Shown: positions 121 to 53,080, numbered from the stretch's first letter. The stretch: 64,000 nt of DNA from Candidatus Sericytochromatia bacterium (GCA_015272195.1 JACYMC010000046.1:4139-68138); one strand, 5' to 3'. Notes: generated from the letters alone by a model not told the origin. Translations and numbers: made by a program.

Positions 121-1107
121 ATGGCGTTACGCATTATTCGCAAATCGGCTTCCCAAAGTCAGGTTGAACTGATTAGGGGAAAGTCAGAGCAGGCTCCTGC
201 CGCTTCGCTCCTGATCTACATTGACTCGGAGGCCCAGCTTCAGGCGGCCAAAAGTCTGCTGGCCGCCCAGTGGATTCAGGATGATGTGGAGTGCCTGCTG
301 ATGAAGTCCAGTGCTCTGGACGAGCCGCTGCGGCCCCATTTTAATGCCCAGGGGCAAACCATCAAGCTGCTCAATGAGCCCAGAGACGCCAGCTGGTCTC
401 TGCGTTTGCGCACCCTGATCCAGGAGGCCAGCGCCGAGTGCTGCCTGTTTTTACCGCATTTGCCGGCTTCGGTCGATCTGATGGAAGTACTGAAGACCCT
501 GGCCAGTGCTTTGCCCACCGATCCCAATCTGGCCCTGCTGGGTCCGGCGCTGGTACATGACGGGCAGGTGCTGGCCGCCGGGCAGGACCTGGCCGTTAAC
601 TTTGCCCGTCATCAGCTGCTGACAGAAGACAGTGCTTATTCACTTGAGTTTGATCAGCAGCGTCTGTTCTATTTTTATCAGGGTTTGCCGCTGGCATTGT
701 GGCAGCGTCTGGCCGGTGAGCGCTTGCTCTCTGCTGCCGGTGTGCCGCTGAATGTGGCGGCGATTCGCCGCTCGGCCTATCTGAGCCTGGCCTGGCAGGA
801 CCAGGATTTTGAGCTTCCCTGGCTGGCGCAGGAGCTTTCTTTTGCCCTGCGCCAGGCCCAGTATACGCTGGCGATTTCAGGCCTGACGCTGAATCTCTCT
901 GACTCAGAAGCTGAAACCCTGAAATCTTCAGTCGCGCCCCAAAATCTGATGGATACCTGGCAGCCCTTGCGTAAAAACACCCTGTATCCACTCTACTTGC
1001 AGCACGGCTTGATTCCGCAGGGGCAGGATTTTGCCCTGCCGCTGCAACCAAAACCCAAATCAGATCCCGTTGCCGCTTATATCGCAGAAAGGTCTTCTCA
1101 GGCATGA
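121..1107 (+). CDS. GT2-like glycosyltransferase-fold protein, probably degenerate
   Basis: 328-aa ORF. Segment LALLGPALVHDGQVLAAG resembles the GT2 'VG.KL....G.IQHAG' region. No clear DxD motif. Overlaps the next gene by 4 nt (ATGA). Confidence 0.5.
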   Translation: MALRIIRKSASQSQVELIRGKSEQAPAASLLIYIDSEAQLQAAKSLLAAQWIQDDVECLLMKSSALDEPLRPHFNAQGQTIKLLNEPRDASWSLRLRTLIQEASAECCLFLPHLPASVDLMEVLKTLASALPTDPNLALLGPALVHDGQVLAAGQDLAVNFARHQLLTEDSAYSLEFDQQRLFYFYQGLPLALWQRLAGERLLSAAGVPLNVAAIRRSAYLSLAWQDQDFELPWLAQELSFALRQAQYTLAISGLTLNLSDSEAETLKSSVAPQNLMDTWQPLRKNTLYPLYLQHGLIPQGQDFALPLQPKPKSDPVAAYIAERSSQA

Positions 1108-4100
1108 GTCTCAGCGTTATTGTTTATCTGAATTCCCGGAGTACGCTTCACCCACGCTTTCTGATTGAGGCTTTAAAAGCCCAGCAGCAGGCAGCGCCTG
1201 ATGTACATATCTTTTATACCGAAGATCTGACCTTGCCTGAGCTGCCTGAAAACTGGCAGCAGACGGCCGTCAGCCCTGAAAGCAGCTGTGCTGAGATCTG
1301 GCAGCAGGGCTGGTCCCAAAGTCAGAGCGATTATGTGGCGTTTTTCTCTCAGAGTGTCTGCCTGAACCCCTTGCATTTTGCTGCGCTCTTGCAGACCCTG
1401 CAAACACAGCAGCTGCACGCCAGCTGTACGCAGCCTGAATTTGTAGACAACCAGCTGTTGCCGGTGCCCGAAATGGCGCTGCCGGTATTAAAAGCAGCCG
1501 ACTGGCCCGGTTTTGCGCTGGCCTCCCGGATTCTCTGGCCGTTTGAAAGCGCCTGTTTTTTTCGTGAAGCCTTGAATGAAGATTTCTTTGCGAGCCTTTC
1601 AGAGCAGCCCTCTCTGCGTGATGCCCTGGACTGGCTGAATACCCACCCACTCAGCGTGCTGCCCCTTCAAACCCTAACCGTTCCGGCAGAAGCCTATTGG
1701 CAGGATAAAGCCACAACAGCTTCTCAGCAGCCTTATTTTAAGCAATTACTGAAAAAGTATGCACCAGAATCCCTGACGCCGTCTTATGCCCTGGCTACAG
1801 AGCAGAAAACACCTGCAGCCTGTTACTTTTTTGTGTCGCAGGCTTTGCTCAATCAGGGGCTTACGGGTTTGCTGGATGCCTTTCAGAAAAAAAACCAGCA
1901 ACATATTCAGAATCAGAAACAGGTGATGTGGCTGACAGAAACATTGCCCGCAGACTGGAAGAACCTGCTGCAGGGCTTGCAGGCTGAGGGCTTTACCCCC
2001 TTGCTGGTCCAGCTGAGCACCGAGCGCAGCCTGAGCGGTGAGCCCTATTTTACGCAGTACACTCAGCAAGACGGCGTGCCCATGATCAAAATTTCCGGGA
2101 TTCATCCGGTTGAGTTTCAGGTGCAGGGGCTAGAGCAGCCACCGGCAATGGTTTCCTGGATGATTGCCCTGATCAATGCTTATCAGCCCGCGCGTTTGCA
2201 TCTGAGTACCCTGCATTTTTATTCGGCCTTTTTTCTGGATGCCATCCGCGCAGCCAATATCCCCATTTATTATTCCGTCAGCGATACCTCCCTGAATTTC
2301 TGGCGCCATCAGTTGCGCCAGCCTGAAACCCGTTTCCGCGAAAACAAATACGCGCCCGCTGCGCTGTATTATCAGAATCGGCTGGTGCAGCAGTTTTTGC
2401 GGGAAGATGCTGCGGCTTTGCTGGTTCATCAACCTGAAGCAAAGGCGCAGCTGCTGGATCTTGGCTGTGCCCCGGAACGGATTCAGGAAGTCAGTACAGC
2501 CGCCGCGCTGGCTGAGGTGTATCGGCAGCCGGCGCGTGTCTACCGCCAGCAGGTCAATCAGGCGGAGATGGCACCGCTTTACCAGCTGCGCACGGGGGAG
2601 TCTTTGGCTAATGCCCTGTTGCAGGATTTTAAAGACGTGGATCTGCAGGCCCGTGTGCTGGTCTGTGGCCAGGATATTGAAGGGCTGCTGCGCCTGTTAC
2701 TGGAGCAGGAAATCTGGACCCAGGCCACGGTTTTTGACGCTGAACAGGCCCAGGCCTTTAAAAAGAAAGGCCTGAACGCTCATCACGGCAGCCTTACGGC
2801 GCTGTCGGCCTACAGCCATTATTTTGATGTGGTTTATACACCCTTTTTGCTGGAAAGTCTGAAGCCGCACCAGTACCATCAACTGCTCAGCAGTGTGATG
2901 CTGAACCTCAAAAAAGGTGGGGTCTGGCTGCTGCGTACCCGTCACCCGGTGACAGCGCGCCCTGATCAGGGCGGTTTCTGGCTTTCAGCATCCCATCGCC
3001 GCCCCTATTCACCGGATCTGGTACAGCACTGGCTGGAGCAGGCGGGTTTTGAAGTGGAGCGTGTGATTACTGGTTGTCATGACAAGGGTTGGCACGACGT
3101 TTTGTTCAGAGCCCGTATGCGTATTTCCGCCTTGCCCCTGCTCAATGCGCCGGTGGCGACAGCCGCCTGTGAAAAAGTCTGGCACGAAAATCCGCTCAAC
3201 GTCACGCTGAACGAAGAGGCTAACGTGCTGCTGGTCGGTACCCATATTCGCAAAACCTGGATGATTCAGCGCATGAGCTGTGCTGCAATGCTGGGGCTAA
3301 GCCTGAATTTTACTGAGTTGCCGCACTCGCCTCAGCGCCGCCTCAAAAAACACCAGTTTCGTCATGCCCGCCATCTCAACGCCAGTCTGGCCCATCTGCA
3401 GCAGCAATTTGATGCGATTCTGGTCGAAGGTGCTGCCGAAACCCTGATGCCTCAGGAACTGCAGCAGTTTCTACAGCTGTGTCGCCAGCGTCTCAAGCCT
3501 GACGGTGAGCTGCATCTGCGTAGCCTGCAGCTGGAGCCTGACAATGAAGATCCCCTGTTCTGGCAGAGCCTGCTCCATCAGCGTCCCTATGCTGATTTAC
3601 AGTCAGCCCTGGCGGCGCAGGGTTTTGAAGTGCTGGCCGCTGAGCAGACGGGGCTGATTCATCAGTATCGCTGCCGACTGGCTGAGCCTGTACAGGCCAC
3701 GCGCTCTACCCCCAAACTGCCGGCCAATGTCCGCCAACTGATGAAGCAGGGCGCGCGTGTTCAGAAAATTGATCACTGGCAGCAGCTGACGCAGCTGGGT
3801 CGGGAGCAGGACTGTCTTTTGCTGGATGGTTTGCTGGAACAGTTACCGCCTGATCGCCTGGTGCCCGCTCTCAGGCAGCTGATCCAGTCTCTGCGGCAGG
3901 ATGGCCTGCTGGTGCTGCTTTTTGAAGCCGACACCCACTGGCGCTGGGCACAGCATGAAGGTCAGCGGCCTTATCCGTCTCTGGTGGTGGAGCAACTTCT
4001 GCAGCTCTGCGGCCTGCAAAAGCATAGCCTGGTGGCCAGTGAGCAGCGCTGGATTTGGTGTGGGTTCAAACGCCAAGCCTTGCTTCCCCTCGCGCAGCCT

Positions 4101-52281: not shown

Positions 52282-52821
52282 TCAGGCACATCCACAGTCC
52301 TGACAGGATTGCACCGAGTGGGTGCCGCAGTGTTGCTGGAGCTGGCGGCGCAGGGCCCTGCGGGCCCGGTGCAGACGCACGCTGGCCAGGTTGGGACTGA
52401 TGCCCAGGCTCCGGGCCGTTTGCTGCACGCTCTGCTGCAGGCTTTGCAGAATCAGGGTCTGGTCCAGGGCCGGCAGGCGTTCGACATAGCCCAGCACGCA
52501 GGGGCAGGGATTGACTTCGTCTGCTGTGTCACTGGCGTTCTGCGCATCGCTGAGGTGCAGCAGGGCGCTGTCGGGCAGGGCCTGCTCGCGGGTCTGCGCG
52601 CGCTGCAGATCGCTCAGGGTGCGGCTCAGAATCCGGTAAAGCCAGCTTTTGAGGGCCGCCGGATGCCTGAGCTGCGCTTTTCGCTCCAGGGCCTTGAGCA
52701 GGGTTTGCTGCACGGCGTCTTCGGCCAGCTCGGGCTTATGGCTGCGCGCCAGGGCCCAGCGCAGCAGCGCCGGGCGCAGGGCCAGCAGGGCGTTTGTCAG
52801 GTCAGGATCCGGGGGCGACAT
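52282..52821 (-). CDS. ECF sigma factor, CorE/ECF44-like (CxC linker plus C-terminal Cys-rich domain)
   Basis: sigma2 (AEDAVQQTLLKA...WLYRI), CPC linker, sigma4 (LGIS....SVRLHRARRAL), and tail HCGTHSVQSCQDCGCA. Start taken as ATG 52821. Confidence 0.85.
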   Translation of the reverse strand: MSPPDPDLTNALLALRPALLRWALARSHKPELAEDAVQQTLLKALERKAQLRHPAALKSWLYRILSRTLSDLQRAQTREQALPDSALLHLSDAQNASDTADEVNPCPCVLGYVERLPALDQTLILQSLQQSVQQTARSLGISPNLASVRLHRARRALRRQLQQHCGTHSVQSCQDCGCA

Positions 52822-52825
52822 CGGG

Positions 52826-52963
52826 CTAGTTGCCGGGACAGCGGCATTCGGGCGGACAGCCACAGCCAGGGCCGCATTGGCAGACCTCGCCACAGCAGCA
52901 GCCGCTTTCGGGCGGCACGCTGCAGGGGCAGTTATCACAACAGTTGGCAAGTGGTTTTAACAT
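52826..52963 (-). CDS. Unannotated metallothionein-like peptide (45 aa, 13 Cys)
   Basis: Own translation: MLKPLANCCDNCPCSVPPESGCCCGEVCQCGPGCGCPPECRCPGN*. GGAG SD 7 nt before the ATG. Stop lies 4 nt before the sigma ATG. Confidence 0.85.
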   Translation of the reverse strand: MLKPLANCCDNCPCSVPPESGCCCGEVCQCGPGCGCPPECRCPGN

Positions 52964-53015
52964 TGGCTTTCTCCAGTGCTTTTATTCATGCAGGTGTTTG
53001 GCCTGCTGATACACA

Positions 53016-53042
53016 GACGCACAGACACCCTTTGATCTTACA
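53016..53042 (-). promoter_or_regulatory. Candidate ECF-type promoter of the metallothionein-sigma operon
   Basis: Minus strand TGTAAG (53042-37), N17, CGTC (53019-16), about 52 nt upstream of the metallothionein ATG. Confidence 0.45.
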
Positions 53043-53080
53043 CTTTTGCGACCTAAAAAAACAACTTGTGGGGGCGGAAC

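Follow-up and report, generated by a model that had tools for sequence, protein, structure and literature searches.

The cysteine-rich reading frame

The window is a stretch of 64,000 nucleotides from a Candidatus Sericytochromatia bacterium (GCA_015272195.1, JACYMC010000046.1:4139-68138). Its minus strand carries, in this order, a candidate promoter, a gene for a small metallothionein-like peptide and the gene of a CorE-like ECF sigma factor. The peptide gene lies at 52826-52963 (ATG at 52963-52961, TAG at 52828-52826 included) and its product reads MLKPLANCCDNCPCSVPPESGCCCGEVCQCGPGCGCPPECRCPGN. Translation of the minus strand gives 45 residues, 13 of which are cysteines, with no histidine and no phenylalanine, tryptophan or tyrosine, as stated in a preliminary description made from the sequence. 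The arrangement CC-x2-CxC-x7-CCC-x3-CxC-x3-CxC-x3-CxC reported there was also verified, and it is kept in register in five lineages. The Shine-Dalgarno sequence, GGAG at 52974-52971, is indeed located 7 nt 5' of the ATG, in a probable 5' UTR which spans 52964-53005 on the minus strand if transcription starts at the predicted position.

The same description regarded the N-terminus of the annotated sigma factor as the shadow of this gene in another frame. The annotated ORF (52950-52282, 222 residues, TTG start) begins with LPTVVITAPAACRPKAAAAVARS, and its first 43 residues are an Ala-rich, out-of-frame reading of the peptide gene, so the false extension of the window sigma factor corresponds to 52822-52950 on the minus strand. 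The true start is the ATG at 52821, 4 nt after the stop codon of the peptide, in agreement with the JGI gene call P0002, which opens with MSPPD. Such false N-terminal extensions are also found in public calls (P0001, 197 residues; P0007, 287 residues; the ORF at 1638-1763 of locus L096), and seven of nine peptides of the family are missing from a collection of 15 billion proteins, even though their contigs were gene-called. The error is therefore systematic: the peptide is missed and the sigma factor is falsely lengthened at its N-terminus, which a six-frame profile search could mend.

The 13 cysteines are contained in a stretch of 38 residues; the runner-up among all six-frame translations of the window has 10. 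In 200 block shuffles of the window the highest count is 10 and the mean 7.1, so that the cysteine density of the peptide is beyond chance. The cysteine content (29%, 13/45) falls inside the range of metallothioneins, about 15-35%, and the peptide has two other features of these proteins, few or no aromatic residues and the presence of CxC, CC and CxxC motifs. The members of the family have 43-65 residues and 10-16 cysteines. AlphaFold2, run with an alignment of eight members, returns a pLDDT of 56, no secondary structure and no autonomous fold. A cysteine-rich peptide devoid of histidine and aromatic residues and predicted to be unstructured fits an apo-thionein, but the AlphaFold2 output decides nothing.

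Four haplotypes, about 93-95% identical, were recovered from public metagenomes (bioreactors, activated sludge, sediment, compost), and their differences were introduced into the window sequence, which was then translated. The peptide frame contains about 12 synonymous events (Cys TGT/TGC, Pro, Gly, one Asn, and a TAG to TAA change of the stop) and, at the amino-acid level, the four replacements Q29K, G33N, R41N and N45K. No cysteine is substituted and the stop codon is retained. The identical substitutions, read in the shadow frame, produce non-conservative changes. Since the synonymous pattern is seen in the cysteine frame only, it is this frame which is selected. The changes are unevenly distributed along the gene: codons 1-28 carry 2 of them and codons 29-46 about 16.

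Between deep homologues, the pairwise DNA differences in a core of 22 codons (GCCCG...CPPECxC) are mostly at third codon positions (4/3/12, 3/4/11, 4/3/9, 3/3/13, 3/2/10 and 1/1/9 differences at positions 1/2/3). This bias between lineages indicates a protein family. A lack of conservation of the cysteine frame in relatives had been chosen beforehand as an observation that could overturn the proposal; the frame proved to be conserved, the 13 cysteines remaining in register at 49-57% identity.

The gene callers, which skip the peptide ORF and lengthen the sigma factor, would be right if the ORF were a chance open frame in GC-rich DNA, part of a 5' UTR or of a genuine N-terminal extension of the sigma factor. 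However, the substitutions fit the cysteine frame alone, all cysteines are kept in homologues at 49-57% identity, their density exceeds that of every shuffle, the Shine-Dalgarno sequence is conserved and P0002 places the start of the sigma factor after the peptide gene. The probability of a chance frame is negligible, and the haplotype substitutions, the conservation of the cysteines and the third-position bias rule it out to the extent that sequences can do so. Judged from these substitution patterns, the 45-residue ORF genuinely codes for a protein, and purifying selection acts on its cysteine frame.

A family of cysteine-rich peptides

The homologues with 49-57% identity come from one Logan contig, one JGI contig and Lujinxingia sediminis, and all 13 cysteines are in register in each of them. 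On the Logan contig L081, the peptide MSEDCCKSCNCGAPAVAGGCCCGAVCKCGADCQCPPECGCPGQ (950-1078) is encoded directly upstream of P0003, a sigma factor which is 46% identical to that of the window; its 13 cysteines are in register and AGGAG precedes its ATG. A search with a peptide profile retrieved P0023, a protein of 57 residues annotated as "hypothetical protein" (WP_164856419.1) in Lujinxingia sediminis (Bradymonadales, locus L095), and P0024, of 65 residues, from a Logan assembly. A pattern scan with the peptide alignment, in which the sigma factor was not used, led to the JGI metagenome locus L096, where the peptide is encoded at 1589-1753. The peptides of L081 and L096, P0023 and P0024 keep all 13 cysteines in register, and the pattern of the family is CC-x2-CxC-x7/8-CCC-x3-CxC-x3-CxC-x3-CxC. 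A second, more distant subtype, exemplified by MSASVTSCVCNPCETASRAVGAPVSSTCPCGPDCGCGAGCPCGTGCC, is built of CxC blocks; it occurs at loci L086, L092, L089 and L090, upstream of the sigma factors P0011, P0008, P0010 and P0007. The sample of the family is small, about nine distinct peptides.

Neither the window peptide nor three homologues (P0023, P0024 and the L086 peptide) match any model of Pfam or NCBIfam, in Pfam at E <= 1. A word-index search with the single peptide in a set of 5.8 billion clusters returned no match, and phmmer against 1.84 billion representatives gave 0 matches at E <= 0.001. Both searches are probably blank because gene callers mostly overlook such peptides and because the query is short, with a biased composition. 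Among JGI metagenomes, a scan with close-variant patterns retrieved nothing and one with the broader alignment a single locus, L096; the tblastn search of plasmids and the scan of viral contigs had no match.

Sequence and profile searches of the PDB with the peptide gave no significant match. The sole chain touched by a profile of the family (A2) is a snail Cd-metallothionein, 6qk5, with CQCGSKCQCGEGCTC at E = 4.5; neither the better profile A4 nor the single sequence matches a PDB chain. A scan of genome contigs with the window sigma factor, which did not include the window's own species, returned 80 generic ECF loci (25-57% identity), all of which lack both the CorE-like tail signature and a CxC-rich ORF upstream. 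The expression C.C.{2,4}C.C.{2,4}C.C, applied to the six-frame translations of 88 loci, occurs nowhere beyond the peptides of the family. The suggestion that the peptide belongs to a new family is thus borne out as far as its sequence part is concerned: the family is conserved, its synteny with the ECF gene extends to distant lineages and no model of a known family matches it. The window peptide is probably the founder, or a member, of a hitherto undescribed cysteine-rich peptide family of bacteria.

The peptide had been described as dissimilar to metallothioneins of the SmtA/BmtA type, and this holds: PF02069 (Metallothio_Pro) does not match at E <= 1, there is no histidine and no SmtA chain was retrieved from the PDB. 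PF02069 includes PmtA of Pseudomonas and the cyanobacterial SmtA and NmtA, the canonical examples being cyanobacterial, and SmtA is controlled by the ArsR/SmtB repressor rather than by an ECF sigma factor. Like these proteins, the window peptide is a small, cysteine-rich bacterial protein which would be cytoplasmic and regulated by metals; unlike them, it has neither histidine ligands nor zinc-finger-like fold elements. The dissimilarity to MymT, also put forward, agrees with the phmmer result. MymT is the copper-induced, Cu(I)-binding metallothionein of mycobacteria and belongs to the CsoR/RicR regulon. Both are small cysteine-rich bacterial peptides which annotation overlooked, but their cysteine patterns and their regulation differ.

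The likeness to eukaryotic Cu- and Cd-thioneins stands at the level of motifs and does not reach significance, the best PDB match being that of the snail protein quoted above; the Pfam models of eukaryotic metallothioneins do not match at E <= 1. Fungal Cu-metallothioneins, and ciliate metallothioneins with CCC motifs, belong to this eukaryotic group. The resemblance lies in the small size, a cysteine content of about 30%, the lack of histidine and aromatic residues and the repeated CxC-x3-CxC units with Gly or Pro in between. The differences are the bacterial host, the operon with a sigma factor, and the fixed CPPEC and GCCCG blocks which are peculiar to the peptide family. The carriers of these peptides, which resemble eukaryotic CxC thioneins at the motif level, are at least one Bradymonadales isolate, several uncultured lineages and the genome of the window. 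On the sequence evidence, a metallothionein-like bacterial family in a new regulatory arrangement would be new: curated libraries hold no model for it and its one named member is a "hypothetical protein". Reviews name two bacterial metallothionein families, SmtA/BmtA and MymT, and a third would widen the picture of metal buffering.

A small cysteine-rich peptide, of a size typical of precursors such as SCIFF, could also be the precursor of a RiPP, a bacteriocin or a signal, the product being modified, or disulfide-rich and secreted. We consider this very improbable. At eight peptide loci no radical-SAM, YcaO, lanthipeptide or peptidase/export gene adjoins the peptide gene, NCBIfam gives no match to a RiPP precursor, the peptide shows no division into leader and core, no signal peptide is found in the window peptide, and the conserved partner is a transcription factor.

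The operon with a CorE-like sigma factor

The sigma factor encoded downstream of the peptide (52282-52821, minus strand, 179 residues) has the Pfam domains Sigma70_r2 (PF04542) and Sigma70_r4_2 (PF08281); its best NCBIfam match, SigZ, is below the cutoff. The CorE-like signature consists of a CxC motif within the linker plus a domain rich in cysteines at the C-terminus (PMC8999054, PMC6851896). The window protein holds the sigma2 and sigma4 domains only, and the linker between them contains a CxC (NPCPC) whose cysteines, C106 and C108, are invariant in an alignment of 10 sequences. In the same alignment C165, C176 and C178 of the C-terminal tail, CGTHSVQSCQDCGCA, are invariant and C173 is nearly so. 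No anti-sigma-like gene lies beside the sigma gene.

The domain content, the linker CxC and the cysteine-rich tail are shared with CorE and CorE2 of Myxococcus xanthus (ECF44, now within ECF238), which likewise have no anti-sigma gene; relatives are encoded beside copper genes. The tails differ. That of CorE2 has six cysteines (C169, 173, 174, 178, 181 and 183) and that of the window four (C-x7-C-x2-C-x-C); tails of ECF44 have 21-50 residues (PMC6851896) and that of the window is shorter. The regulons of CorE and CorE2 comprise P-type ATPases, a multicopper oxidase and a CDF-type efflux protein, and no metallothionein, in contrast to the pairing of the window sigma factor with a thionein-like peptide. 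In the papers drawn on for CorE-like and ECF238 sigma factors, no cysteine-rich peptide or metallothionein is named as a partner, and literature searches that combined metallothionein with either ECF sigma factors or the taxa of the carriers gave nothing relevant.

The preliminary description proposed to examine the synteny with the ECF gene. Each member of the family whose context is readable sits directly upstream of a CorE-like sigma factor, in distant lineages, and a cysteine-rich ORF occupies this position in 8 of 11 distinct CorE-like loci for which DNA is available. Locus L096, reached by the peptide alone, shows the same layout of promoter, peptide and sigma factor; since it was found via the peptide and not via the sigma factor, the linkage of the two is not an artefact of the search.

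In the window, two genes with the same direction follow the sigma gene on the minus strand: that of a cNMP-binding protein of 157 residues (52200-51727), for which an exact-match look-up returned no match, and that of a MopB-like protein of 902 residues (51723-49015), with only a weak molybdopterin-binding C-terminal domain and no NCBIfam match. They may be co-transcribed with the peptide and the sigma factor in the window. The close relative L083 has them in the same order, and they are absent from L081, L086, L092, L095 and L096, outside the conserved core. The wider neighbourhood is not conserved, and the conserved unit is therefore the promoter, the peptide and the sigma factor. The other neighbours in the window encode an ABC-F protein, an AI-2E transporter, an MMPL protein, PGM and MetRS; no metal transporter is found near the peptide. 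In Lujinxingia sediminis (L095, 4804-5770), three small genes (123, 83 and 114 residues, no family match) with the orientation of the sigma gene lie 3' of it.

The candidate ECF-type promoter of the window is made of a -35-like TGTAAG (53037-53042, minus strand) and, 17 nt downstream, a -10-like CGTCT (53015-53019, minus strand). In an alignment of eight upstream regions which are otherwise unalignable, the invariant blocks are TGTAAG, GTC and ATG only. The motif TGTAAS-N15-18-CGTC has a single match in the whole window. TGTAAG-N16/17-[CT]GTC is found 5' of the peptide in 7/7 peptide loci with upstream DNA, and three CorE-like loci without the peptide have no TGTAAG motif before the sigma gene. 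The TGTAAG element is identical in the haplotypes that cover it, and the region 53000-53046 is almost unchanged among haplotypes. A sigma-70 promoter scan of the intergenic region gave no match. The 5' UTR shows several indels between haplotypes (52964-52999 of the window compared to 600-643 of L083); a 5-nt insertion shifts the distance from the Shine-Dalgarno sequence to the ATG from 7 to 12 nt, and GGAG is kept in all haplotypes.

In RNA-labelled runs of four studies, short contigs (151-204 nt) are centred on the peptide ORF. They stop at about 52963-53000, just 3' of the CGTC at 53016-53019, and none crosses the promoter. In X29, which is poly(A)-selected RNA-seq, a peptide contig of 204 nt is the only genuine piece of the organism in 8 kb. 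The coverage of X24 is patchy, with a depth of 9.2 on the peptide compared to 2.6 on the sigma gene, and in X6 and X20, which may contain DNA, it is near-uniform and low over all genes. These signals come from contigs assembled out of metatranscriptome libraries, in which DNA can be present. They support, without proving it, that the predicted promoter drives transcription and that the peptide part is the more abundant.

Since the sigma start lies only 4 nt after the peptide stop and no Shine-Dalgarno sequence is evident for the sigma gene, translation of the sigma factor is probably coupled to that of the peptide. The spacing is 4-20 nt in the loci of the CCC type, which suggests coupling there. 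In the loci of the CxC type, 60-85 nt with a hairpin separate the sigma gene from the peptide gene, and the two are not coupled. Strong hairpins lie between the two genes in L086 (2936-3003, -49.5 kcal/mol, z -6.0), in L092 (2434-2503, z -3.2) and in L090 (2694-2780, followed by UUUU), and they may act as partial terminators or stabilisers which give an excess of peptide over sigma factor. The subtype of the peptide goes with the type of the sigma tail: the CCC type is paired with CGT.S...C..C.C and the CxC type with CG.C....C..C.C.

The short spacing and the lack of an evident sigma Shine-Dalgarno sequence would also suit a leader or coupling ORF rich in cysteine codons, in which synthesis of the sigma factor would hinge on the completion of the 13-Cys ORF by ribosomes and thereby report how much cysteine or Cys-tRNA is available, so that translation would matter and not the product. 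The presence of sulfate assimilation genes, that is, of cysteine supply, 3' of the sigma factor P0010 in L089 (PAPS reductase, sirohaem synthase and sulfite reductase, 1080-3325) is in line with this, and it is a single case. It is nevertheless a highly unlikely explanation: residues other than cysteine (GCCCG, CG, CPPEC, P17) are kept in deep homologues while third positions vary, the spacing of the cysteines is fixed, 43-65 residues exceed the length of classical leader peptides, and the sigma genes of the CxC type are uncoupled. The mRNA of the window, moreover, has no alternative hairpins; its folding is unremarkable (z = -0.64), and Rfam gives no match on the leader and the ORF.

Proposed metal buffering and the candidate metal

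The reading which we favour, with somewhat better than even confidence, is that the peptide is a metallothionein-like metal sequesterer, made first in a metal-stress operon which it shares with the CorE-like sigma factor and which regulates itself. We infer metal binding, the choice of metal, the activation of the sigma factor by metal and a feedback. Excess metal would activate the sigma factor via its linker CxC and its C-terminal cysteine-rich tail. RNA polymerase with this sigma factor would then fire the operon's own promoter, TGTAAG-N17-CGTCT, and the bicistronic mRNA would be translated into abundant peptide and, owing to translational coupling, a certain amount of sigma factor. In the cytoplasm the peptide would hold soft metal ions in thiolate clusters, and this chelation would lower the metal signal, so that positive autoregulation would be combined with negative feedback by buffering.

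Several observations speak against parts of this scheme. A thionein operon is disfavoured by the lack of significant sequence or profile likeness to any known metallothionein and by the absence of a metal transporter nearby. The invariable pairing with the sigma factor could mean that the peptide has a regulatory role rather than one in bulk buffering. As for the autoregulated circuit, CorE2 was reported not to be autoregulated and CorE to be so only partly (PMC6851896), in contrast to the window sigma factor, which lies behind a conserved promoter. The four cysteines of its tail, compared to six in CorE2, also count against the scheme, as do the origin of the RNA contigs in libraries which can contain DNA and the small sample of the family.

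It is also conceivable, although rather unlikely, that the peptide mainly regulates the sigma factor, as a thionein-type antagonist or a metal donor at the CxC and cysteine-rich site, in place of an anti-sigma factor. The position of each readable family member, adjacent to and upstream of the sigma gene, is typical of ECF regulators, the subtypes of the peptide and the sigma tail go together, and CorE-like sigma factors have no known anti-sigma factor (PMC6851896). On the other hand, the peptide lacks an anti-sigma domain, for which it is too small, and its co-variation with the tail can be plain shared ancestry. The higher apparent level of peptide mRNA and the hairpins are more in keeping with a stoichiometric chelator than with a 1:1 regulator. 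This alternative overlaps with a sequestering role, because a buffer also regulates.

Beyond the sequesterer operon of the window, the peptide and the CorE-like sigma factor could form a two-gene sensor-buffer module present across phyla, in which the thionein replaces the anti-sigma factor and, by retaining the activating metal or taking it away from the cysteine site of the sigma factor, sets the threshold and the shut-off. This generalisation is tentative, and we regard it as doubtful. If it were true, it would reveal both a new mode of control of ECF sigma factors and a new bacterial metallothionein family. Through the pairing in itself, CorE-like sigma factors acquire a new output, and the group, which is said to work alone, a candidate partner in regulation. 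Consisting of two genes and one promoter, the unit could serve as a metal biosensor or as a chelator part.

With regard to the metal, CorE responds to Cu and CorE2 to Cd and Zn in M. xanthus; both sense the metal via a CxC motif and a cysteine-rich tail, with no anti-sigma factor (PMC4937300, PMC6851896). The second cysteine of the CC pair in the tail of CorE2 gives the specificity for Cd and Zn, and the tail of the window sigma factor has no CC pair. The CorE-like sigma factors without the peptide adjoin a Cupredoxin/HMA/YHS P-type ATPase, an HMA ATPase with an HMA chaperone-like gene, or a YHS gene with a multicopper oxidase. Thus, considering the sigma tail and the copper context of the relatives, Cu(I) is probably the leading candidate for the putative thionein; Zn and Cd are also possible.

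A sister motif, TGTAAC-N15-17-CGTC, precedes ATPase and HMA genes in two CorE-like loci without the peptide: L084 (2923-2947, minus strand) and L088 (2507, plus strand; 2458, minus strand; 3640, plus strand). The genes behind it are the divergent Cupredoxin/HMA/YHS P-type ATPase, the HMA chaperone-like gene and an unknown gene of 176 residues. The peptide therefore appears to fill the regulatory slot which copper-detoxification genes occupy elsewhere, an indirect link to metals. All sigma factors of this group probably share TGTAA[GC]-N15-17-CGTC as their promoter motif, a conserved element from which the regulons of CorE-like sigma factors can be predicted.
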